A stretch of DNA of 64,000 nt from positions 1 through 64,000 of the forward strand of contig KZ538297.1 of assembly GCA_000934665.2 (NCBI GenBank), in the 5' to 3' direction. The stretch is from Catajapyx aquilonaris (taxonomy: Eukaryota). Position numbers and translations under genes: made by a program. Below the pieces are notes generated by a model. That model did no database searches, had not been told where the DNA came from, and saw nothing but the letters and a program-made list of their open reading frames with translations. This document shows, piece after piece, positions 3,743 through 49,164 of this stretch (position 1 is the first letter of the stretch; every line of letters starts with the position of its first letter).

Positions 3743-5527
3743 AGCAAATATCTGCATCGGCATGCTGTCTTTGTTGGTATGTCAAGGGGAGGTAGCATAT
3801 TATGTGACAGGTCATGATGTAATTTTCCCTTCAAATTAAATTGCTCATTGTTGCAATGACGCAATATAATGGGTCTGCACAAACTTAATATTACTGCATA
3901 TTTCACTATTTCACTTACCAGCATTTTTCCAAGTGGGTATACAAAGCGCCTGACAAAAACAAGTCTCACTGGGCACTGTCAACCCGTATCCCAAAATAAA
4001 AACCATAACGTGTTGCATCGTGCGATGCCCCCCCCCCCCCCCNTCGTGTGATGCCCCCGTCCGGATCATCGTCAAGGTCGACCTCACGCGCGCATCAGAT
4101 TTATTTCCTAAAATCCCTCCCCCAAATCGAAGTTGCAAAATCGCGAGCATGTTCAGCACACCTGCCCCCATTTAACCAGAATTAACACGCGACACATTGG
4201 GAGGGAAACCGGAGTTAATTTGACGACTGTGCGTTTACAATCGACTCTGTGTCGGGAATCACATTTTATTGGCCTATGTGTACTGCCATATTAGGTCATA
4301 CGCGCCCATGTTTTACCAACCTTTTTTAGCCGCCATCAGGTAAAAGCTGTGTCGGCTGCAGGCATCTGCTCTCTCAACTAGGTAAAAGCTAAGTGCAGCA
4401 CATAGCACCGGTCAAATGTTTGGGAGCGGAAAATGCGCGGCAAAATGTCGTCCATCTTGTGTGCAGATCGGCCGCCATCTTGCCTATACACTCTAGCCTC
4501 GCACGGGGCCCACATTCCCCCCTTTTTGGCGCCAAAACCTGCTGTGACGTCACACTTGTCGTATGACCTCCCGACAACCCCTACTCTCGCAACCAACCCC
4601 AACCCCAAGCACACCCTTGGCCCCGGGGCCGGGCACCAACCTGCCTGCCCCACCAACACCGACGCCCTTGGCCCTAAATTCACGGGTGGTCAGCGAATAA
4701 AAATAAGGGGGGGGGGNACGGTTGGCCCTCGGTGGTTGGTCACCTGTCCACCTGGCCCTGGGCAGAGCTGGCGTAGGGCGCCCCGGGGTCAGTGAACCAC
4801 CCCACTGAGCGAGGGTCACTGACCGATAAAGAGGAGCGTCCCTGACGTGCGTCCGATCCGCTCCAGACACAGCAACAAAAAGAGCCGGAGGAAGGAAGGT
4901 TCCAGAAGATCTTCCAGGGCCAGAGGGAGCTGCTGATTGGCTGGACCTACCCAATCAGCATCTGTGGCGCCAAATCACGGCCATCTTGGGTCCCAATTTT
5001 GCATCCACTGTCTTTAACCCTACTGCACTTTGAATCGTATTTGCAATATTATTAATATCGTTCAACATGCATGGAATTTTCTGCATTAAAATTATTATTC
5101 CTATGTGATGTGGCTTCGTAAAAGAAATTATTTCGACAGTAGCGGTTATTTTTTTTGGAAACTAACAGCTGCGTTATGTGCAAACAGTTATTTTGTAGTA
5201 CAGTAGTAGCCTACCGTATCATAATAATATAGAATTGGCTCGAGACTGTGCCTCTGTTTGTCCGGGGTGATTCTTAGCAACATGGCAGTCCCACTACCCC
5301 TCGCACGACCCTGAGAGTGGCAGCCATGTACAGGTAGGGGGAAATGCGCCATCTATGTGAGGGATATGGTGCTACGTAATCAGTCGGAGGGCCTGGGTAG
5401 TTTTGGGAACGCGGTTCCAGTAGTGGTTTTAGACTTGGTTGTCAGACTGTGATGTAAGAAAGACATGAAAACTACGCTACCGTACCGGTACTTCTAAAAG
5501 TGCGATGAAATTACTGTACAGTGAGGG

Positions 5528-7093: not shown

Positions 7094-9953
7094 TTAACTC
7101 TGCGAGGCTTGCCTGTTTTGCAGGAGCCGTTCAACAGCCGCGTTGATGTCTCCAAACGTTGCAATCAGTGCTGGAAACGGGAAGGAAAAAATAGTGATTA
7201 ATCTGCAAATGACGCAAAATGCAAGAGCGGTCTTACCTTGCAGGTTGGCCTCCCTATTGACGAAACCCATGGCTGTTAGCTGCTCCATTTGGGTGCGGTA
7301 TCGCTCCTCTGGAGGTTGATTGCTTCCCGGACTCTGCCCTGCCATTGCCGATATCTACAAAAAAAGGGACGGCTACAGTTTGCGTTCCTGCACTGGCAGT
7401 ATCAACAGCACCCGCACTTGAGCCGGGTTGAAAGCAGGCATTAATTTAGAGATCATACCATTCTAGCCATGAACTGGTTGAAAACGTCCTGATTCTCGCC
7501 AAGATTTGGGACGCCAGGTGGCCTGCTCTGAGTGCTGCTGTCTCCTCCTAATGTGGGTGATGCGGCTGTTGTGTTCTGTGAGGATGGTGTGGTGGTGGTG
7601 GTCGTGGTGGTTGCGGGCGCCGTGTTGGCGGTGGTGGTTGGGAGGCTTCCGGTGAAAGGGTGCAGCGGCCCCAGCCCCATGCTGTTGACCAGCCCAGGCG
7701 CAGCCTCTCTCAGCTGCTCGATCCCCTGCTGGATCTGCAGGATGGCGTTGAGGGCCTGTGGGTTAGACATCATTCCTTGAACGTCCGGGTTCTGAAGTTG
7801 CTGTAGGTAGTTCGGCATCATGATCCGCAGCTGGTCCATCAGCGCTGGGTTGCCCGCAAAAGCAGGGTTGGCCCCCAGAACCTGCGTTGCAAGGTCTGGG
7901 TTGGCAGACATGGCCTGGATCATTTGCTGCGTGTAAGGTGCATCCAGCATCTGCCGCATGAGCTGTGGGTTCTCAATCATCTGTTGCATCATGCTCTGCA
8001 TTCCAGGTGTGTTCATCATGCCAAATGGACCTTGGTCGGTGGCTCCGGCCGAAGCGCTTCCACTGCCCGAGGTGGCAGTACTCCCAGCGCTGCCTCCACC
8101 GTCTCTCGACCACGGGTTGGGCAAAGGGTCCCTGTTCTCCTGCCCCTGCCGACCGTCAGTCCCTGGTCCGGCAGCGCCCCCACCTCTGGATGCAAATGGG
8201 TTTCCTACAATCTGTTCCTGCGCGGCATTGAGCATTGGCTCCTGGATGTCCCTGTACATGCGCTGGAGGGCGTTGAATCCTCCAGGGATAGACTCCAGGT
8301 TGGACATGGCACGATCCTGAGTTCGCATCAGTTCCTGCAGCATTGCTGGGTTGCGGGCAAGCTCCATCGTCTGGCGCAGAAGGTCCGGATTGTTCAGCAT
8401 GTGGGTCACCTCAGGGTTTCTCTGCACGGAACGATAAGGATTCACATCATGACCCAGACGATAAACAACCTAATTACGCTTATTTTAATCAAAATCAGTG
8501 GTAATAGTTTAGAAACGTTTCTGAACGTTGGCTATGCAGGCTTGTGGCATTTCCCGCATACCGTTTAACCCGAGACACCTGCTTGGCAAGTGTAATGGTT
8601 TTTTAAAAAGTGGTCAGACCTGTTTACATCGGGAATTGACCTGATGACCAGAAACTGCAACAATTTATGTAGTAAAAAAAACAGCCATGCAATTAAAATT
8701 AGCCACGCAAGAACATTGTTGTTACACAATAATTTAAAATTCGATTACCTCCATGAGCTGCTGCATCTGCGGGTTGGATGTGAGCAATTGCCTCATGTAA
8801 TCAGGATTGTTCATAAGACTCTGCACAAACGGGTTGTCCATAATCTGCCTCATCATGTCCGGATTGGAGAATAGCTCTCTCTGTACCCTCTGCTGAAGCT
8901 CCATGAAGTTGCCCGAGCCCATCCCAAGTCCTCCGAGTCCGGCCAAACCTCCCAGGCCGCCCAGGCCAAATGGAGTCGCCCCAATATCTGCGGGTCTTGA
9001 GGTAGGTGCAGGCTGCTCTGGAGGTGCGGCCGAAGACGCAGCAGTCGCCGCACCCGCTCCAGTAGACCGATTGGTCTTGATAACCAGATGGACAGTCAGG
9101 CCATCCTTTATGTTATGTGTCTGCAAGTTCTCATGGTCCTTCATTATCTTCCCTGCGAATATCAGGCACAGCTGCTCAGGTTCGGCATTAAACTTCTTGG
9201 CAACAAGGGCCTTGAACTGAAAAATAAAGTTACGACGACTTATTAAGACGCACTTCTCTGAAACCTGAAAAAGCGACATACTGTAACACTATTTGAGCTG
9301 CAGTGATCGTGCGCAACTAGGCGAAAATAACGTCTGGTTACACAAGCTACAGTTTCAGTGATTTGAATCTAAAGGAATCGGTTTTTGTCTTAAAATTCAT
9401 GCAGTGCTGCATGACTTCTTACAACAAGCGCTATGGTGTTGCCGTGGCATATTAAATAAATTCTCCTTCTACGTGCGGGAAATTCTTCTTGAACAATACA
9501 CAATGAAAATTTTCAAATATATAAATCAAGGCAGCCAAACTGCATACGAAAAACCTGTGAAATGAATCAGTGAACCCAGAAGCCCCGCCATGATGACCTA
9601 GGCATTTCTGAGCCAAGGTGAATGGGGTGTATCATTGCCACATGGTTTCTTTTGTGATGCAAAAAAAAAAAACCAACCATACGCCCATTTCTCAACCCAT
9701 TATGCAAGCATCGGCTCATTTGTCACTACAACTACTCTTCAATAAAGCCGCATTTCCTGTCATCCTGCCCGTGGGCCCAGGCATTTCAAAAATATGGTCA
9801 TGTACTACAAGTTACAATAAAGGTCCGTGCCGCATACCCTATATAGGGTCAGGCACTACCCAAGAATAAAGCCGCATTTACATGCGAGCGATGAACAATT
9901 GGTCTCATCGCTGATAAATCGCTCGCATGTAAATGCGGCTTAATGGTTGCAGT

Positions 9954-13320: not shown

Positions 13321-15537
13321 TCCTTATTATTTTGGTGTAGTAGTGAGAGCCTGCTGGAAAGTTAGCACTGTTCTTGCCGCCCGGTTGTTTAATTATTTAG
13401 TAGGGGATTTTGCTCTAATTGTAGACGCTGTCACTTTTTTAAAAAAGAGAGAAATTTATTGATATTTCATCTTTTTTTCCCCCGCCTTAATATTATTGTT
13501 TCCATGTCATATATTGTGAGTTGCTCATCACCAAAGAGCAGTAGCCTACAAGACAGAATCCGCCTCAATATTGTCCTGAGGGCACGCCGCATTTTTTTAA
13601 ATAATAGGCTTCACCTTTTGGCATTTGACATTTTTTGAAAGCAACGCGGAAGCTCCTAATGAGAGAACCGAGCCCGTTTGGCTTTTCAAAATGAGACTTG
13701 TACGCCGCAAAGTATTTATCCTATAAATTGGCATACACAATTCGCAAGAGGATGGGTGGGTTAAGCCGCTTATCATTATTATTGTTATTGATACACTTCC
13801 TGGATTTTTCAAAAAAATGTTATTCTTGAAATTAGGAAGCTTGTTAATGAAAAAATAATAATAATTTACGAATCCGTTTCATTCATTCTAGGGTGAACGC
13901 CTGGTCATTTTTTATGCAGAGGTCATTTGGTAGGTATATCCGAATCGAGGTAATGCAATTAGCATCGAGTGAGGTCACGGGCCGCATTGTTTCCAAAAGT
14001 TGGGCCCGAAAAGTTTGTTTCCCCGAAGGAAACACCGCATCCACCCGGATGTAGATATTATGAATCAAAAATCATTTTCAATTTACTATTTCAGTTTTGC
14101 CATGAATTTATGAACGGCTCCATTCCGAAAGTGGAGTTGTTTTATAATTGCGATTTTGCATCTCCAATAATTAGGGCACTAACCTCACTTTACAAACAAA
14201 GTTTTCTCTGATGTCACTACTTGTTTTATACTGCATAAGTTTATGACCATCTGAACAGGGAAAACCGAAGGGGTTTCACTTTCAGTAGACGGAAACTTCT
14301 CAATGGGAGCAAATTACGCGTGATTATTTCCTGTAATTAGCCACTTTTTATACAGCTGGTTCTCATAATATTGAGTACAGGTACCTTGACCTCAATGTTT
14401 ATTTCATATGCTGCAGACTATTGTTAAGAATGTGTAATTACAACTTATAAATTTCATCCTCATCGCGCACTGTCTATAATATGTATATCCTTGAAATGTG
14501 TCACCTTCGTTCCCAATCACTCTTCATGACATGTGACCTGTCCACTTTGTCCACTTTGTCGAGGTCAACAAAAGGCCTTGCCCATTTTGTCCTCCACCTC
14601 CGCCTGCCCATTATATCCACAACATTTTCGGTAATAATTCCTGGAACCACCAGTATAGGACAATAGGAGGAACCTTATATACGAAGCGGAAAGAGCTAAG
14701 TAAAAGCCAGAAAGAAAATGTATTTCCAGGAGATAACGAGACTACCTTTTGTTTGTGAAGCATTACCTATAAAGCCGGCCTCTCTTTTTCCATCAACACT
14801 CTATAAAAGGTGTCAATGATGCCGAATTAATGGGCTGCCCGAGGAAACGTAAGTAAGGGCGCCATTGTGAGCAGGTGAGAACCTCCTCATTGTTCTTGGG
14901 GGTATCTTGGACCCCCGTCTCCTGGACACAAACAAGAGCAAGTGTAGGCAGAACAATGCGACAAAAAGACCCGGTCCATTTCGCTGGGTATTTCCGGACT
15001 GACCCCAACCAACCAGGTCATGTGTGTGGGTGTGATCAAGTCTTTTTAGAAAAGGTTTTACCCATCACATATTGTATAGGCCAAATAATAATAATAATAA
15101 TAACTCGTGGTCACAATGTTTAAGACAAAATTCCCTAACTGTGTGGCCATAATGACATGTGCGTTTGTGACTTTAATGCCAAAGGTCAATATAGTAATTG
15201 TTTTGGTCACGTGTTTTTATGTGGTTATTAGAAGGGGCATCTAACATGACTCTTGCCCCGGGCCCCAGAGAAGCTCTGCAGGGGCCTGGGAGGAGGGATG
15301 GAAGATGGAGGATGCTGGGAAGGATGAAAAATGGTGGGAGGGAAAAAAGCAAAAAAGGTTCTGAATATATAGTATCGACGTGGTTCTACACCAGGTGTTG
15401 ACAAGGAAGCGCACGCATATTCTGTCTATATTTCTCAAAAACTATACAAGTCGAAACCTTGAAGACTGACCACTACAACTGCTTGCGAGCAGAGGATGAC
15501 ATATTTACCACACTTGGTCCAGCAAGCAGCCTGCATC

Positions 15538-16850
15538 ATGAAGGTTAGTTGCTGTGTACTGTGCTATACATTACAACATTACAAGTTGAGTCCATCAGGG
15601 TTGATTCGCTTTAAAATACGGGTTGCCATGCTAAGTAATCCGCACCATTTTCTTTCCTATAACGGGCTCTTGGCCTGCGGACTTGTAAGTTGATTCATCA
15701 TAAGTGTAAATGCAATGGCGCAATTATGAAATTATTGGAAACGCACAGTTTATACATGAATTTAACTGTGGAGTTAAAACAGTTGGAAAACGCAGGGTGC
15801 TGCATTGTTCAAGTTCAGTAATGCTCACAACAATAAGGGATGGTTCACTTCGAACTTCTTGCTGGGGTGAACGATTCGTGGTTTGAACTGTATAGGGGAC
15901 TTGAGAGGTGGAATTGGCCTGTTTTGTTAAAGTGAGTGTGAATTGTGCCCAGTTGGCGATCCTGATTGTGATGCTGTTCGTCGGGTCAGGGCTGACCTTG
16001 CGCGAGGTCGGGGTCAACCCGCGTAATGCCCACCTGCTGCTGCGTGCCCTGGGCATGCCCTGGGGCATCAGGGCCATACACACCCAGCAGGGTTATCTGG
16101 CTGACCGCTCTGTCCTCACGACGCGAGTGACTGAGGTCAAAAGTGCCCTCTGGCCCACTGACAATAAAGGTATGTTCAGACGTCACCGACGCGACGTCGC
16201 AGTCACACTATAGAGTTGTATCCAGCAGGCGACGGCGCCGACATCAGGACCTGGAACATCACGACTGGAGTCCGTTACAAGCGTGACTGCCAACCTCCGT
16301 CGACCGCCCTGCGTGAGGTCATGGGGTCGGAGTTCAAGAGGTCACTGATGGCAGAAGACCACCAGGAGTTGAAGCAGCGTCTCATGGAGCAGCAGCTGCT
16401 TGACGTGCGTCGAAGGCGTCGAACCAAGCGGTAAGTCTCCCCACTCGCCCTTTTCCATCTCAACCTGACCTATTGACCTCAGGACAGCTGATGCCGAGAT
16501 GTCTCCCTGGACCTGCGAGATGCGGGAGTTCTGGCGGGAGATGGACCCGTCATTCTGGCCTCTTTGGATCCGTGACGTCGAGTGCACCTCCACCAGCTGC
16601 TTGGATGGTATCTACCACTGCAGGCCTCACAATTACACCGTCAAGGTACATGATCGTTGTTGTGGTATGTCCAGAACTGTCCCAAATTATTCTCTTTGGG
16701 CATGACTGGCAGGTGCTGACGCGGCAGGCGGCCGACGAGGTGTCCACCTGCGAGGACCAGAACGTGATGTCCCTTCCAGATTCGCTGCGGAAGGAATGGA
16801 AGTTCCACAGTGTGAACGTGACCGTCTGGTGTGACTGCGTCTTGAGTTGA
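15538..16850 (+). CDS. trk-like: Trunk/PTTH-family secreted cystine-knot precursor, copy 1 (divergent). Exons 15538-15543, 15953-16169, 16226(or 16229)-16430, 16483-16645, 16713-16850
   Basis: Signal peptide MKLAILIVMLFVGSG; furin sites RYKR and RRRRRTKR; mature domain SPWTC...WIRDVECTSTSC....YHCRP..YTVKVL...C...WKF..VNVTVWCDC follows the Trunk cysteine pattern; introns in frame. Confidence 0.82.
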
Positions 16851-18961
16851 AGACGCCATCACCTTGGTGCTGGTCAACTCTGTGTTTTATTTGTTTGTAG
16901 GGTTTCAAAACCCTATGATTGTCATTAGATGTTCCACGCACAATTAACCTGGACATCATATCCAGGATGGTGGAACCCAAGAAGAAGCCATATCAAGACA
17001 GTAGAAAATATAGACACACTGTACCGCACTCCAGTACCGGTACAAGCATTTTGTATTGGTACAAGCTGCAGCACGCACACTTAATAAAAACTGACCATTG
17101 GCATCCAACACCGATTGGATTTTGATATTATAAGTATAGTTACCACAGTCAAATGGGACCGGAAGCGTCTTCCTGTTGGCATCTTGCTGCAAGCCTCCAG
17201 TACCTACAACGACATACAAAATGTACGTACATAAACTTAAGGGGGGATTTTATTTCCATGTAGCCTACAGAGTTCTGGCCACTTCACGAATACAAGATGG
17301 GTCATAAATACAATTATGGCAAAATAATTGGGATGGGGAGGTCAAAGTACTTTTCCAGCCATTCCAGAACCTGTCCCATTCTTTTTAAAGACGATTTAAA
17401 AAAATATAACGTCCAACTATACACGGAGTCATCCACTGTTCAGTACTGACAGTGTACTAATTAGCAATCGGCTAAAACAAAATTAACAGCCACAAATACT
17501 GCTATTTAGCACTCAGGCCACATTTTAGTAGCAAATGATACTTTGAAAGCAGATGGACACAGCGGATTTTTAAATAATAAATCATAATTACTAATTATTA
17601 TTTGCCTCTGCGCACTACTAAAAATGTAGTACTTCTTTCTCATGTAACGGAAACTTTTAAGTACTAAAATCGGCTGCTAATTAGCTGCTAAAATCGTTCT
17701 CATTATGTAGCTCATTTTCGCTCATATCAGCAGATCAGCTAGCAGCCGCTAAATGTTTTTAGCGGCTACATCCGCAACTTCTATAGATTGATTTTTTTTA
17801 ACGAACGCAACCGAGTGCGCATCCACACTCGCGCACGTCCATTGTTCCAAAGTTACGCTTCTTAGGTTAGCTCCAGAGCCTTTGGCAACAAAAGTTTTGG
17901 AAACAATTTGCCCTAACTCTGTTGCGCACTCGGTTGAGCTCGTGTAAAAAAAAAAATCATCACGCATATTTTTACACGTGATAACATGGGATCACGCATA
18001 TTCTCATGCGTGATTAGGCTTTTACTATTTGGCAACACTGCTTGCCCCCCCACACACACTTGAGCGTAGTACGATAGACCACTGCCAGTTGGCGCATAGG
18101 CTGTCCCTCTCTGCACACTACTGCCGTGCTGAGGGGGAAAGTCGTACTACTGCATGCACGTTGGTGATGAGTCTCCGCGCGTACAAAGCCCACCAGGGTG
18201 CTCTCGCCCCCCCCATTGAAGTGGCTCCCACACTCTCTGACCACTATGTCCGCTAATTATTGAGCGGGTAAAGTTTTTTAACAAATTGTAACTATATACT
18301 AATTAATACCTATAGGCGATGGGTCAAACCGGACGAACTTGTGGACAGAGAGAATAAGCGGATTAGGTGTATAGATACTGCATTATGAAACACGTTGTTT
18401 AGACGTGCTTTTGCTTTTGAGAACCGACTAAGACATCACTGAGTTGCTTTTTTCCCCCCCCAACTTGTCGTCATTCAGAGATGTTTTTCTTCGGGTACAT
18501 ATGAAGATCTAAAATGTGTCGTATCCGTCTTCTCTGCTGGTTTTTCGGGGGCAACACAAAAGGAAAACGTCTCCAACGGCAACCATTGGACCAGGTTGAT
18601 TGCACTGGGAAGAAACCCAATCCAGACGTTGGAGCATATTCATTCGTCGCTTTTGATGACCGGATGATTTCCTCATTTGTGACAACACTGTGGTCCATTG
18701 GATGGTGGGAGAGGAGGAGAGATGGAAGGATGATGGGGGGGGGGGGGGGGGGGNAGATGGGGGAGGGGAAAAAGGTTCTGAATAGAATCGACGTGGTTCT
18801 ACGCACGTAGGTGTTGACAAGCAAGCGCACGCACATTTTTTTTCAATATTTCTCAGAAACTATATAAGTCGGAACCTGGAAGACTGACCACCACTGCTTG
18901 CGAGGCGACTCTCCAGAGGACTGATGACGTCTTAGCCACACTCGGTCCAGCAAGCAGCATC

Positions 18962-20291
18962 ATGAAGGCAAGTAGTTGATGTGTACTGTACTACAAGTAT
19001 ACATTTATACAACATTACAAGTTGAGTCCATCAGGGTTGATTCGTCTCAATACAGGTTGCCATGCTAAGTAATCCGCACCATTTTCTTTCCTATATAACC
19101 AGCTCTTGGCCTGCGGACTTGTAAGTTGATCATCATAAGTGTAAATGCAATTAATTGGTGCAATTATGAATTTATTGGAAACGCACAGTTTATACATGAA
19201 TTTAACTGTGGAGTTAAAACAGTTGGCAAACGCAGGGTGCTGCATTGTTCAAGTTCAATAATGCTCACAATATATAAGGGATGGTTCACTTCGAACTTCT
19301 TGCCGGGGTGAACGATTCGTGGCTTGAACTGTATAGGGGACTTGAGAGGTGGAATTGGCCTGTTTTGTTAAAGTGAGTGTGAATTGTGCCCAGTTGGCGA
19401 TCCTGATTGCGGTGCTGTTCGTCGGGTCAGCGGTGACCTTGCGCGAGGTCGGGGTCAACCCGCGTAATGCCCACCCCCTGCTGCTGCGTGCCCCGGGCAT
19501 GCCCTGGGGCCTCAGGTCCATGCACAACCCTCAGCCCAACCATCTGCTGGGTGACCGCTCTGTCATCACAGCGCCAGTGACTGAGGTCAAAAGTGCCCTC
19601 TGGACGGACACTGACAAAGGTATGTTCAGACGTCGCCGACGTCGCAGTCACACTACAGAGTTGTGACCAGCAGGCGACGGCGACGACAGGACCTGGAACG
19701 CGACTGGAGTCCGTTACAAGCGTGACTGCCAGCCTCCGTCGACCGCCCTGCGTGAGGTCATGGGGTCGGAGTTCAAGAGGTCACTGATGGCAGAAGATCA
19801 CGATGAGTTGAAGCAGCGTCTCATGGAGCAGCAGCTGCTTGACGTGCGTCGAAGGCGTCGAACCAAGCGGTAAGTTTCCCCATAACTCGACCTTTTTCTC
19901 CCCATCTCAACCTGACCTATTGACCTCAGGACCGCTGATGCCGAGGTGTCTCCCTGGACCTGCTCGATGCGGTACCACTGGCTGGACATGGGCGCGTCCT
20001 TCTCGCCTCGCTTCATCCGTACGGCCGAGTGCACCTCCACCAGCTGCTGGCATGGTATCTACCACTGCAGGCCTCGCGACTACACCATCAAGGTACCGTT
20101 TGTGTGTGGTATGTCCATAACTGTCCGAAATCATTTTCTTTGGGCATGACTGGCAGGTGCTGAAGCGCCAGGCGTCCGACGAGGTGTCCACCTGCGAGGA
20201 CCAGGACGTTGTGTCTCTTCCAGAGTCGCTGCGGCAACAATGGAAGTTCCACAAGGTGACCGTGACCCTCTGCTGCGACTGCGTGCGCTGA
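18962..20291 (+). CDS. trk-like: Trunk/PTTH-family secreted cystine-knot precursor, copy 2 (conserved). Exons 18962-18967, 19394-19619, 19671(or 19674)-19869, 19930-20092, 20157-20291
   Basis: PWTCSMRYHWLDMGASFSPRFIRTAECTSTSCWHGIYHCRPRDYTIKVLKR...WKFHKVTVTLCCDC matches the recalled Trunk motif (PW.C...W.D.G..FPR.IR..EC...CW....C.P...TIKVL.R...CC.C). First intron would be GC-AG. Confidence 0.88.
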
Positions 20292-21641
20292 GAACGCCGC
20301 CATCTGGTCAATTTTGTGTTTGTTTGTTTGAAGGGTTTCAAAACCCTATGATTGTCGTTAGATGTTCCACGCACAATTAACCTGGACATGTCCAGGATGG
20401 TGCCACCCGAGAAGAGGCCATATCAAGACAGTAGAAAATAGAGACACACACTCCAGTACAAGCATTTTGTATTGGTACAAGCTGCACCACGCACACTAAA
20501 TAAAAACTGACCATTGGCATCCAGCAACAACCTATTGGACTTTGATATTATAAGTATAGTTACCACAGTCAAATGGGACCGGAGCGTCTTTCCTGTTGGC
20601 ATCTTGCTGCAATTAGCCTCCAGTACCTACAACGACATACAAAATGTACGTACATAAACTTAAGGGGGGATTTTATTTCCATGTAGCCTACAGAGTTCTG
20701 GCCACTTTCACGAATACAAGATGGGGTGATAAATACAATTATGGCAAAATAATTGGGATGGGGAGGTCAAAGTTCACGCCCTTTCCAAGGGGACACACGT
20801 CGGGTGCAAGGAATGTTGCGAAACCATCTCTCTTGTTTTGCGCTTTTTATCATGTTCATTTCTGGAATTGGCGTGGTCATACAATTATGTATACTGGGAG
20901 AGAGAAAGAGAGAAAACTGTACATAAGTACTGTACAACGCATGGGAATAAACCAACACTGATTAAAATCACTGCCCCCGCCAAAAATAATTCAGAGTGAC
21001 CAACGTGTCCACTACAATCGGAGACAAAATGGGCAATCTCATTGTTGGACCAGTCGCACCAACCGATGTCAATTGAACGTCAAAATTGTGCTTGCCTATA
21101 TCGATCAATAATTAATAGATGAAATATTTGATTGACATTGTCACAGCAGCTGATAAATTCGGATGCCAATACTTTACGTCTCCGATAGTACCCCCCAAAC
21201 CTTCTCAGCACTTTTCCAGCCATTCCAGAACCTGTCCCATTCTTTTTAAAGACGATTTAAAAATAAAATAAAACGTCCAACTATACACGGAGTCGTCCAC
21301 TGTTCAGTACTGACAGGCGTACTAATTAGCAATCAGCTAAAAACAATTAACAGCCACAAATACTGCTATTTAGCCACATTTAGCAGCTAATTATAATTTT
21401 AAGCAGACGCATTCAGTCGAATTTAAAAAAAAATAATCTGCGCAGTGGAAATTACTTAAATGTACCTCTTTCTCATGTTAAGTACGAAAATCGGCTGCTA
21501 ATTAGCTGCTTTAAAAAAAACGTTCTCATTATGTAGCTCATTTCCGCTCATCATACCAAATATCAGCAGATTAGCTGTTAATTTTAGCAGCGCTATGCAG
21601 CCGCTAAATGTTTTTAACGGCTACATCCGGCAACTGCTATA

Positions 21642-21848
21642 CAGGGTGGTCCAAGTTCAAGTGTCGTTTTATAACGGCGATTAATAGCAGTGATTTTGCG
21701 ATGACGTAGCAGCGACGCGTAAAATGTTCCATTTCGGCGCATCTTCGGCGCAATCGAAGTGGGCAATTTTACACGTCGCTGCTACGTCATCGTTAAGCGC
21801 TTCTATTAATCGCCGTTATAAAACGACACTTGAACTTGGACCACCCTG
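21642..21848. mobile_element. Tc1/mariner-type palindromic MITE
   Basis: ~46-bp perfect TIR CAGGGTGGTCCAAGTTCAAGTGTCGTTTTATAACGGCGATTAATAG; TA target duplication; absent from the paralogous site at ~17783. Confidence 0.92.
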
Positions 21849-22208
21849 TATAGGTGGATTTTATTTTAACGAACGCAACCGAGTGCGCATCTACACTCGC
21901 GCAAGTCCATTGTTGACGCCCCTCTAATGTTCGTTCCAGAGCCTTTGGCAACATCGCAAAAGTGTTTGCGCGAACTATGTTGCGCACTCGGTTGAGCTCA
22001 TTTAATTAATTTATCCATATAATTTAGAGCATCTTTCCGCATCACTTGTCCCCATTGGACTCGCTGGACAGCTCTTCCGGTCATTGTCACAACAATCAGA
22101 TCTTCTTTTTTTTTTTCGAGGGTTATTTTTTTTTAGGTACACATTCCTTAAAATATAATAATCTCTCTTCTGTGCAGCGCATCATACTGGGGTATGTACA
22201 TGTTGTTG

Positions 22209-34725: not shown

Positions 34726-34869
34726 NNNNNNNNNNNNNNNNNNNNNNNNNNNNNNNNNNNNNNNNNNNNNNNNNNNNNNNNNNNNNNNNNNNNNNNNNNN
34801 NNNNNNNNNNNNNNNNNNNNNNNNNNNNNNNNNNNNNNNNNNNNNNNNNNNNNNNNNNNNNNNNNNNNN
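34726..34869. other. assembly gap (N run)
   Basis: Read directly. Confidence 1.
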
Positions 34870-47032: not shown

Positions 47033-49164
47033 TCACTCCTTCATCGACTCCTCCGTTGGTCCTTGTGCCTGCGGCGCCGTCGAATCCCTATCCTTCTTCT
47101 TAGATCCGGACACAATGTCGTCGATTCGAAGAAGCAGGATCGCAGTCTGAAAAACATGCGTTGTACTTCCTGGTTCATTACTGTGTACCGGCGGCTTACC
47201 TCAATCGCAGTCTTGTACGTCTGCAGTTTGACGGCAAGCGGCTCCCACACGCCCTTCTCGGCCATGTCAGCCAGCTCGCCACTCTCGCCATCGATGCCCC
47301 AAGTAGCCCCGCCGGTCGCATGCTTAGCCCTCAGTGCCGTCAAACTCCTAAGCGCGTTCCCGCCGCAATTGTGTGCAAGCGTACGCGGAATGACCTCCAG
47401 CGACTGAGCCAAAGCGCGGTATGGCCACTGCTCAACTCCAACCATCCCCTTCGCTTTCTGGCCCAATGCTTGCGCTACGGACATCTCTACAGCGCCGCCG
47501 CCTGGCACAAGTCGGGGGTTAAGCCGCAGGTTACGTGCCACATGCATCGCATCCTGCAGATTCCGCTCGACCTCCATCAGGATATCCTTAGACGGCCCAC
47601 GCAGCAGGATGGTGCAAGCTTTCGGCTCCTTGCAATCGACAACGAATGTGAAGTACTCATCGCCCAACTTGCGTACTTCGAACAGGCCAGCCTCTGTGCC
47701 AATATCCTCCTCGCGGATCTCCTCAGTGCGGCTGACAACCGTCGCGCCGCACGCCCTCCCGATGCGGTTGTTGTCGGTCTTCCTAACACGTCGAATTGCA
47801 GTGATTCCGGCCTGCACCAGATAATGCTGGGCCAGATCGGACACTCCCTTTTCCGTGAAGACGACATCGGGCTTAGCGCGAATGATGTCAGCGCAAACAC
47901 GCTGGACGTACTCCTCCTCGATTTGCAGGATCCGAGTGAAGTCATCCTCCTTCATGATCTCCACGTTGGTCTGTGAAAATACATATTGATAAGTCATATC
48001 GATGCGCATACTGACAGTACTCACCATGCTCTCGCCTTTCTTATACTCGAGCGAACAATCAAGCAGAAGGATCCGGGGGTTCTCGACCTTCCGCTTCATC
48101 TTCGGGTGGGTCACGTCCTTGTTCAGCATGACCCCCGATAGTACCTCGCAGTCGTCCAGTGTCCCGCCGGGTATCTTCTCCACCTTGGCGTACCGCTTGA
48201 TGTCGATTTCCTTCCTGTCGCCTTCCTCCAGGCTAACCTTCTTGACAGCCTCCAGGGCCATCCCGCACACCATCTTGGCCCACTTACCGGCCATCTTCGT
48301 CCCCAGGCAGCTGTTGACCACCTGGGTCACTCGATCGGTGTCGGTCAACTCCAGCGGGATTGAAACCTGCATTTGGAGGAAGCGGTGTAACCAGTGCGGA
48401 GTGAAACGGATTGTACACAGTACCTGTTCTGTAAGTATGTTGATAGCGTCCTCCAGTGCCTGCCTGTACGCCCGGATCAGCACAGTGGGATGCATCTGCT
48501 GCTGTAGAAACTGCTCCGCAACCGCCAGCACCTCCCCGGCCAGCACCACAACCGAGGTGGTCCCATCGCCCACCTCCTCGTCCTGCGTACGGGCGATCTC
48601 AATCAAGGTCTTGGCAGCCGGATGCTGCACCGTGATCTCCCGAAGAATAGCGTTCCCGTCGTTGGTCATCACAATCCCGCCCATGGGGTCCAGCAGCATC
48701 TTCAGCATAGCACGAGGCCCCAAGCATGTCCGAATCACATCCGCTATAGTCTGTAACAAATGGGATTTCAATAACCCAAAGCTTCGCACCGCAATTAGCC
48801 ATTTTGTGTAAGTCACAATTTTTACTTTTAAAAAAATATTTAGGCTAGGGCTGGTCAACGACCCGGGTCAAGCCGACCTGATGGGGGTTGTTCCATAACC
48901 ACCCTTATACGTTCATTCCGGCCCGTGTGTCTGCCCCTGGGCCAACCAACTGATGTTCCATCCGCCCCTGGGCGAGCCCCACCCACGTGCAATCCTCTCA
49001 CCTTTCCAGCCCTGATGTTGTCCGCCTGCACCTTCTTCCCCGACTCCCTCTTCACGTTCTGACCTGCAAAAGACGACGGATTAATCACCCTACGTGTTCC
49101 CCAGTGTTTGGTGGGCAAAGATGGACTTACTGAGCACGATAATCGGAGCCATTCCGCCTTGCAT
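47033..49164 (-). CDS. CCT3: T-complex protein 1 subunit gamma; exons 49164-49131, 49063-49002, 48750-48424, 48366-48025, 47970-47200, 47146-47033; ~549 aa
   Basis: IRTCLGPRAMLKMLLDPMGGIVMTNDGNAILREI, EVGDGTTSV, EIDIKRYAKVEKIPGG, LLLRIDDIVSG; all introns GT-AG and in frame. Confidence 0.97.

Follow-up and report, generated by a model that had tools for sequence, protein, structure and literature searches.

The window analysed here, the first 64,000 nucleotides of contig KZ538297.1 of Catajapyx aquilonaris, contains two tandemly arranged genes for secreted cystine-knot proteins, and sequence comparison supports the assignment of both to the Trunk branch of the Noggin/Trunk/PTTH family. The genes, referred to as copy 1 and copy 2 in their order along the forward strand, are probably true tandem paralogues that gene conversion has turned into a mosaic, with protein change concentrated on copy 1. 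Each lies in a duplicated unit and has five exons translating into 241 residues, which comprise a signal peptide, a variable pro-region, a pro-domain between two R-x-K-R sites (RYKR and RRRRRTKR) and a C-terminal knot of about 98 residues. An initial annotation regarded the genes as young duplicates and ascribed the contrast between near-identical pro-domains and diverged mature ligands to positive selection on copy 1, with gene conversion sparing the mature exons as an alternative. Raised silent divergence in the mature exons, together with raised divergence in intron 4, favours that alternative.

Divergence between the copies changes abruptly along the pair. From RYKR to RTKR only 1 of 53 residues differs (Q/D, codon at 16363), with two further synonymous differences, while 14 of the 32 residues counted from the first Cys of the knot differ with the reading frame intact; both counts agree with the initial annotation. 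The description of intron 1 as nearly identical holds for its 3' 350 bases but not for its first 60 or so, which are much more diverged, and the intron as a whole has 95.3% identity (19/406 mismatches and 23 gap columns). Identity is 88.0% upstream of the genes, 85.7% in exon 2 (31/217 mismatches), 92.6% in intron 2 (4/54), 96.9% in exon 3 (6/196), 96.2% in intron 3 (2/52), 82.8% in both exon 4 (28/163) and intron 4 (11/64), 85.9% in exon 5 (19/135) and 93.1% in the first 490 bases downstream (32/465). A sliding count of mismatches resolves this into alternating high and low blocks with borders unrelated to those of the exons (blocks A to G in Table 1, where coordinates are those of copy 1 and mismatches are counted at non-coding sites). 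Non-coding mismatch rates are 3-4% in blocks B and D and 0.6% in block G, compared with 19% in block E. Within block D, none of the 26 four-fold degenerate sites from RYKR to RTKR differs, and synonymous divergence (dS) is 0.03. When the 1193 non-coding sites were shuffled, the observed dispersion was reached in 1 of 10,000 shuffles, and the uneven divergence is not a product of chance. Intron 4 is more diverged than the 3' part of intron 1 taken together with intron 3 (11/64 versus 15/401, p = 2e-4), and clean four-fold sites differ less in exon 3 than in exons 4 and 5 (0/32 versus 6/34, p = 0.025).

Pairwise maximum-likelihood (ML) estimates for exon 3 were 0.031 for both dS and nonsynonymous divergence (dN), a dN/dS ratio (omega) of 1.00, with twice the log-likelihood difference (2dlnL) from a model with omega = 1 being 0.01. 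The corresponding values of dS, dN, omega and 2dlnL were 0.236, 0.197, 0.84 and 0.10 for exon 4; 0.485, 0.127, 0.26 and 5.82 for exon 5; and 0.329, 0.164, 0.50 and 3.24 for the two exons together. The Nei-Gojobori method gave dN/dS of 1.43 for exon 4 and 0.50 for exon 5. In this exon-by-exon comparison, which the initial annotation had proposed for separating selection from conversion, silent divergence in the mature exons and intron 4 matches replacement divergence. This is the outcome that the initial annotation had said would refute selection, and the data are best fitted by an older pair that has undergone conversion. A young age is contradicted by the unconverted blocks, which have 14-19% non-coding mismatch and dS of 0.24-0.49. 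Positive selection as the cause of the contrast between pro-domain and ligand is not supported either, as ML omega exceeds 1 in neither mature exon. A young duplication with about 4% neutral divergence, followed by positive selection on the mature-ligand exons of copy 1, is consequently improbable. It would explain the 95-97% identity of introns 1 and 3 and of exon 3, as well as the concentration of change on copy 1, and it draws further support from the Nei-Gojobori ratio for exon 4 and from the codons of that exon, since 18 of the 20 that differ encode another residue, 8 of these 18 through two or three base changes. It does not explain the divergence of intron 4, of the non-coding sites of block E and of the four-fold sites of exons 4 and 5, nor the ML estimates for either exon, block borders that are independent of exon borders, and an upstream region that is 12-14% diverged as well.

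The sequence pattern points to gene conversion as the cause of the mosaic. An older duplication would have come first, leaving silent divergence of approximately 0.2-0.3 wherever the copies were not later homogenised. At least three later conversion tracts (blocks B, D and G), each some 160-440 bases long, would then have homogenised the copies in three regions: the 3' portion of intron 1 plus the stretch of exon 2 that encodes the signal peptide; exon 3 and intron 3; and a stretch past the polyadenylation signal. The region from exon 4 to the start of the 3' untranslated region (UTR) would have escaped, and nearly all of the protein change in it would belong to the copy 1 branch. The escape of the ligand block may be due to chance or to selection against conversion there. 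An old pair that never underwent conversion, in which the low-divergence blocks are held by strong constraint on non-coding elements and exon 3, is quite improbable. The protein encoded by exon 3 is conserved out to springtails and intron 1 could contain regulatory elements, but protein constraint cannot give a complete absence of four-fold differences from RYKR to RTKR, nor 2/52 mismatches in intron 3, 13/349 in intron 1 and 1/160 past the polyadenylation signal.

Several points weigh against conversion in a tandem pair. Conversion is argued from two sequences only, and without outgroup DNA the silent changes cannot be assigned to branches. Block C is ambiguous: the Nei-Gojobori proportion of synonymous differences (pS) reaches 0.19, yet differences are few at clean four-fold sites (1 of 16) and in the intron (4 of 54). 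Low silent change could be argued for exon 4, where only 2 of the 20 differing codons are purely synonymous; the silent estimate there relies on codons with multiple hits and on intron 4. The tandem order rests on the assembly, no contig bridging copy 1 to copy 2 because of very high-copy repeats at 17704-18237 and 21442-21975. Lastly, the conservative copy 2 depends on a GC splice donor.

In principle the two units could be a single locus whose diverged haplotypes were strung together by the assembler, an explanation that is very improbable. In its favour, an N within a poly-G run lies at 18754, near the start of unit 2, and some blocks are 96-99% identical, as alleles might be. No contig of the DNA runs joins the copies across the very high-copy repeats between them, and the four DNA runs share a single sample, from which the assembly was probably made. 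The homology nevertheless crosses the N, extending to about 18700 in unit 2 and 15285 in unit 1, whereas the 750 bases 5' of unit 2 match nothing 5' of unit 1 and the tails past 17950 and 22005 are dissimilar. Alleles are also a poor match for the 13% overall mismatch, the 28 indel events, the 5 coding indels and the 30 residue differences in the ligand. Contig word depths over exons 4 and 5 (31/27/11 and 28/32/19) are near those of the flanks (38/33/23), depth of this kind not being copy number. Contigs of the four DNA runs match both copies exactly.

The region around the N has several peculiarities of its own. The poly-G run is about 25 bases long (18735-18760) and its counterpart in copy 1 is a mixed G/A stretch. 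The N was considered as a repeat border, an idea that was dropped given the homology on both sides of it. Contigs of the DNA runs stop at the poly-G run, and 18772-19038 has next to no contig cover. Further on, at 19227-19273, the sole contig of run X2 has the copy 1 letters at 4 of 4 differing places; this contig could be a copy 1 contig placed on the wrong copy, a chimera of the assembly or an allele produced by conversion, and it is taken here as misplaced or chimeric rather than as evidence for conversion.

The family assignment was made with single exons, rather than whole spliced proteins, as queries. Exon 4 aligns to positions 132-174 of the 211 in the Pfam Noggin profile (PF05806), scoring 24.6 bits for copy 2 and 16.5 bits for copy 1 against a cut-off of 24.1; named Trunk relatives also score low with this profile (21-36 bits). 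Exons 2 and 3 of the copies gave no Noggin profile match at E<=10, the clip motif itself not having been searched for. Copy 2 exon 4 weakly matched the PDB sequences of Noggin (1m4u, E 0.019) and PTTH (5aoq, E 0.037). A HMMER search of 1.84 billion representative sequences with the same exon returned 227 proteins at E<=0.001, of which 19 reached E<=1e-10; the top match had E 4e-13 and 55% identity, and identity of exon 4 to its nearest relatives is about 54-58%. These matches, which bear out the initial description of the genes as Trunk-like, include a fly-type Trunk (P0019), the knot of which is almost the same as that of Drosophila Trunk in supplement 1 of PMC6660194, and the nearest named ones are P0009 and P0151, 'Protein trunk' of the springtails Allacma fusca and Folsomia candida. 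With P0009, P0001, P0007, P0019, P0006 and P0014 as tblastn queries both copies were found, copy 1 always more weakly. The exon 3 pro-domain of copy 2 is 40% identical to P0009 over 48 residues (E 1e-10), while the N-terminal pro-region of exon 2 does not have the conservation across relatives seen for the pro-domain exon. A homologue search with exon 4 of copy 1 found no orthologue of this derived copy, and a search of the same kind with exon 4 of copy 2 also found no match, each result being weak evidence. For a near relative, P0154, a model built from a 60-row alignment (predicted local distance difference test, pLDDT, 83.1) had chains of PTTH structure 5aoq as its top PDB fold matches (E 6.5e-5 and 1.1e-4, template modelling scores 0.68 and 0.76), followed by IL-17. 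Residues 14-41 of P0154, in the pro-domain region that matches exon 3, are modelled as one long confident helix (pLDDT 90-94), which hints at a structural role for a pro-domain that is nearly unchanged between the copies. The evidence from exons, profiles, named matches, trees and the start of the knot together supports the Trunk-like assignment.

Most of the protein change appears to have occurred in copy 1. In a tree of 147 knot sequences inferred with a quick method from 93 columns (both copies and 145 of 150 listed matches, 5 with an uncuttable knot having been dropped), the copies are sisters (Shimodaira-Hasegawa-like approximate likelihood ratio test support 95) with end branches of 0.31 for copy 1 and 0.086 for copy 2. 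A more careful tree of 45 rows, comprising the top 35 matches, P0101, 7 of 8 further proteins (P0158 was dropped) and both copies, again made them sisters (97/75), with end branches of 0.38 and 0.011, and placed them within a 15-row clade (99/99) with springtail Trunks. Residues unique to copy 1 outnumber those unique to copy 2 by 16 to 2 when P0009 is the outgroup (p = 0.0013), 14 to 3 with P0001 (p = 0.013), 13 to 3 with P0007 (p = 0.021) and 9 to 3 with P0101 (p = 0.15), with 11-17 further sites being unassignable. All outgroups tried were closer to copy 2. Branch-wise omega would be roughly 0.9-1.6 for copy 1 and about 0.1-0.2 for copy 2, an estimate that assumes silent change to be split equally and involves no fitted model.

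The changes in copy 1 affect positions that are otherwise highly conserved. Among the 145 homologues, the D, G and R of the first-finger motif W..D.G....PR occur at frequencies of 0.90, 0.95 and 0.88, respectively. Copy 2 has the complete motif, whereas copy 1 has E, D and L in place of these three residues and keeps the W, P and Cys. Copy 1 also lacks the Trp that follows the third Cys (frequency 0.66) and has lost the leading Cys of the CC pair (0.58). The mature part of copy 1 is acidic, with an isoelectric point (pI) of 4.73, six Trp and two N-x-T sequons, compared with a pI of 6.81 and no sequon in copy 2 and pI values of 7.0-8.9 in relatives. These observations confirm that copy 2 keeps the Trunk consensus and copy 1 departs from it, as had been noted initially. 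At columns that are at least 90% conserved, copy 1 keeps 10 of 12 residues and copy 2 keeps 11 of 12. Of the Cys framework C1...C2...C3...C4, loop Cys, CC.C, copy 2 has 8/8 Cys, as do 80 other of the 147 rows (6 were not parsable), and copy 1 has seven, with Trp for the first Cys of CC. The loss of this Cys was considered as an unusual feature and dropped, since the same seven-Cys pattern is common to 29 other family members and is therefore not odd in itself.

Both genes would yield secreted precursors, by analogy with Trunk, in which a furin-type cut after RRRRRTKR, and perhaps one after RYKR, would release a knot of about 98 residues. The position of RRRRRTKR directly 5' of the knot fits furin-type Trunk cleavage, which is inferred here for the two copies. 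Copy 2 represents the conservative Trunk and is likely to be a Torso ligand. Copy 1 would share the promoter-proximal region, signal peptide and pro-domain through conversion, and it has changed in the first finger, which would face the receptor, as well as in charge, sequons for glycosylation and number of Cys. There is almost an even chance that copy 1 still functions as a secreted ligand and binds differently, for instance as a modulator, as a partner in heterodimers or through another receptor. More specifically, and only tentatively, copy 1 might be a ligand remodelled in the first finger, with a free loop Cys, that acts as a Torso antagonist, a partner of copy 2 in heterodimers or a ligand of another receptor, and that selection against conversion keeps apart; this version is rather unlikely.

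Indels bear on whether copy 1 is under constraint. All 5 coding indels are multiples of three, compared with 7 of 23 non-coding ones (0.30^5, or about 0.003). If both branches were neutral, 4.9 frameshifting indels would be expected in exons 4 and 5 at the rate of the diverged non-coding blocks, with a probability of 0.007 for none. Evidence of constraint on copy 1 alone is weak. With a single neutral branch 2.45 frameshifts would be expected in these exons and the probability of none is 0.086; in simulations with 35 random substitutions, 1331 of 5000 sequences stayed free of stops and 1644 of 5000 retained at least 7 of 8 Cys. Alternatively, the same mosaic could include a redundant copy 1 that drifts under relaxed constraint, its front half kept by conversion from copy 2. 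This is a serious possibility, though one clearly short of even. An omega near 1 on the copy 1 branch by the present estimate, the loss of near-invariant D, G and R and of one Cys, the altered TATA-like box and the drop to 16.5 bits with the Noggin profile are all as expected of a drifting copy, and neither the open frame nor the retention of seven Cys is by itself improbable under neutrality. On the other hand, splice sites and frame are all intact, no frameshifting indel is found in exons 4 and 5, the seven-Cys pattern recurs in relatives and 10 of the 12 most conserved columns are still held. The joint probability of no frameshift, no stop and at least seven Cys is about 0.008 if the tests are treated as independent, which makes long neutral decay of copy 1 unlikely, although each test alone is weak.

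If copy 1 is indeed a remodelled ligand, it would represent an independent repeat of the Trunk-to-PTTH kind of split, in which one copy has stayed frozen and the other has been rebuilt at the most conserved finger of the family. A second independent pair would serve as a natural experiment for finding the ligand positions that determine which receptor is used. The locus also illustrates neatly, on a small scale, how putative conversion tracts can mimic a young duplicate with a fast-evolving ligand. As it stands, the pair is what tandem duplication ordinarily produces, and the evidence for it comes from a single assembly.

The units are collinear, with a core of about 2 kb (15352-17348) that is 87% identical and weaker collinear pieces up to 17947. 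The hydrophobic N-terminus, RYKR and RRRRRTKR are visible in the translations of both copies. Introns are GT-AG in both genes, with the sole exception of the first intron of copy 2, where the donor is GC and its context is otherwise good. TATA-like boxes sit about 100 bases 5' of the ATG in both genes. Copy 2 combines the GC donor at 18968 with TATATAAG, copy 1 a GT donor with the altered TATACAAG, and either difference could influence expression. No third gene copy was found by tblastn within the 64-kb window.

Table 1. Features of the tandem Trunk-like genes and divergence blocks between the two copies.
Feature	Coordinates	Strand	Non-coding mismatches	Remarks
Duplicated unit 1	15285-17950	+		Gene copy 1 and flanks; from blastn and alignment against 18700-22005
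Copy 1 TATA-like box	15443-15450	+		TATACAAG, altered; read from sequence, putative function
Copy 1 exon 1	15538-15543	+		ATG AAG, GT donor
Copy 1 exon 2	15953-16169	+		Signal peptide and variable N-terminal pro-region
Copy 1 exon 3	16229-16430	+		Conserved pro-domain, RYKR (16273-16284) to RRRRRTKR
Copy 1 exon 4	16483-16645	+		First cystine-knot half, derived (D13E, G15D, R21L, others)
Copy 1 exon 5	16713-16850	+		Second knot half; first Cys of CC replaced by Trp; stop TGA 16848-16850
Copy 1 AATAAA	17083-17088	+		About 235 bases past stop
Duplicated unit 2	18700-22005	+		Gene copy 2 and flanks; contains single N at 18754
Copy 2 TATA-like box	18861-18868	+		TATATAAG; read from sequence, putative function
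Copy 2 exon 1	18962-18967	+		ATG AAG, GC donor (AAG/GCAAGT)
Copy 2 exon 2	19394-19619	+		
Copy 2 exon 3	19674-19869	+		Pro-domain
Copy 2 exon 4	19930-20092	+		First knot half, family consensus kept
Copy 2 exon 5	20157-20291	+		Stop TGA 20289-20291
Copy 2 AATAAA	20499-20504	+		About 210 bases past stop
Block A	15390-15600		29/201	
Block B	15601-16040		13/349	Low divergence: intron 1 (3' portion) and exon 2 (signal-peptide region); putative conversion tract
Block C	16041-16260		4/54	Rest of exon 2 and intron 2
Block D	16261-16500		2/52	Low divergence: exon 3 (most), intron 3, start of exon 4; putative conversion tract
Block E	16501-16900		20/106	High divergence: exon 4, intron 4, exon 5, start of 3' UTR; apparently not converted
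Block F	16901-17188		22/271	
Block G	17189-17348		1/160	Near-identical, beyond AATAAA; putative recent conversion tract

The two repeats that separate and follow the genes lie 3' of each copy, have contig word depths of thousands to tens of thousands, and are probably transposable elements. They are partly alike (79% between 17782-17947 and 21849-22005) and have a hairpin-like inverted repeat. Elsewhere in the window, the reverse strand has ubiquilin gene exons at 7453-8469 and 8734-9288 (ubiquitin, STI1 and UBQLN1 domains) and, at 47041-48867, an intronless stop-to-stop frame of 608 codons for CCT gamma (TCP-1 gamma; Pfam Cpn60_TCP1 495 bits, PDB CCT3 chains E 3e-220), a housekeeping chaperonin; this copy could be the normal gene of the organism or a retrocopy. 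A gap of 144 N at 34726-34869 and single N at 4043, 4717, 25618 and 33734 indicate an assembly scaffolded from short reads.

The textbook example of a receptor kinase served by two diverged paralogous ligands is Torso, with Trunk and PTTH. The window proteins resemble Trunk, as represented by Drosophila trk and its springtail orthologues, in having a signal peptide, a conserved pro-domain motif and basic sites 5' of a C-terminal knot, and copy 2 keeps the entire Trunk framework (PW.C ... W.D.G ... PR ... C ... C ... C.P ... LP..LR..W ... CC.C). They differ from Trunk in being encoded by two tandem copies, one of which, copy 1, is acidic and without the motif D, G and R and the first Cys of CC. 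According to PMC6303783, furin-type proteases cleave Trunk to give an active C-terminal fragment. Trunk is widespread in animals (PMC6660194), and PTTH is a diverged insect paralogue with the same receptor (PMC6660194, PMC6303783). Given that PTTH is a diverged Trunk paralogue acting on the same receptor, copy 1 would be an analogous diverged duplicate of Trunk. The copies would share the fold family of PTTH (Bombyx, with Torso, PDB 5aoq), but the PTTH knot starts with C.C and is without the loop Cys and the CC pair (sequences in PMC6660194 supplement 1), whereas the knots of both copies start with the Trunk-type PW.C and keep the loop Cys. Neither copy has the PTTH knot pattern. In trees the copies are sisters and do not group with PTTH, a weak point because the list of matches was drawn with a Trunk-like query. 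Noggin and Noggin-like proteins (PF05806; pea aphid ApNL1 and ApNL2) belong to the same superfamily and match in the exon 4 profile; the copies differ from them in that exons 2 and 3 are without an N-terminal profile match and the tree puts the copies with Trunk. Members of the Noggin family differ in signalling, acting through bone morphogenetic protein (BMP) pathways, receptor kinases or both, as reported in PMC9071555.

The literature searches, which were not aimed at this organism, found no published report of the pair, and two motifs of the window proteins are absent from the supplements of PMC6660194 (6 of 8 files complete). Homogenisation of tandem duplicates by gene conversion, except where function has diverged, is a general pattern. 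The locus resembles that pattern in its mosaic of near-identical and diverged blocks that ignores exon borders, and in the apparent lack of conversion in the functionally distinct part. The comparison here covers two sequences without outgroup DNA, which give neither a direction nor dates for the tracts. What is new here is a pair of tandem Trunk genes, one of them frozen and the other changing fast, apparently homogenised in part by conversion, within a kind of system that is already known.

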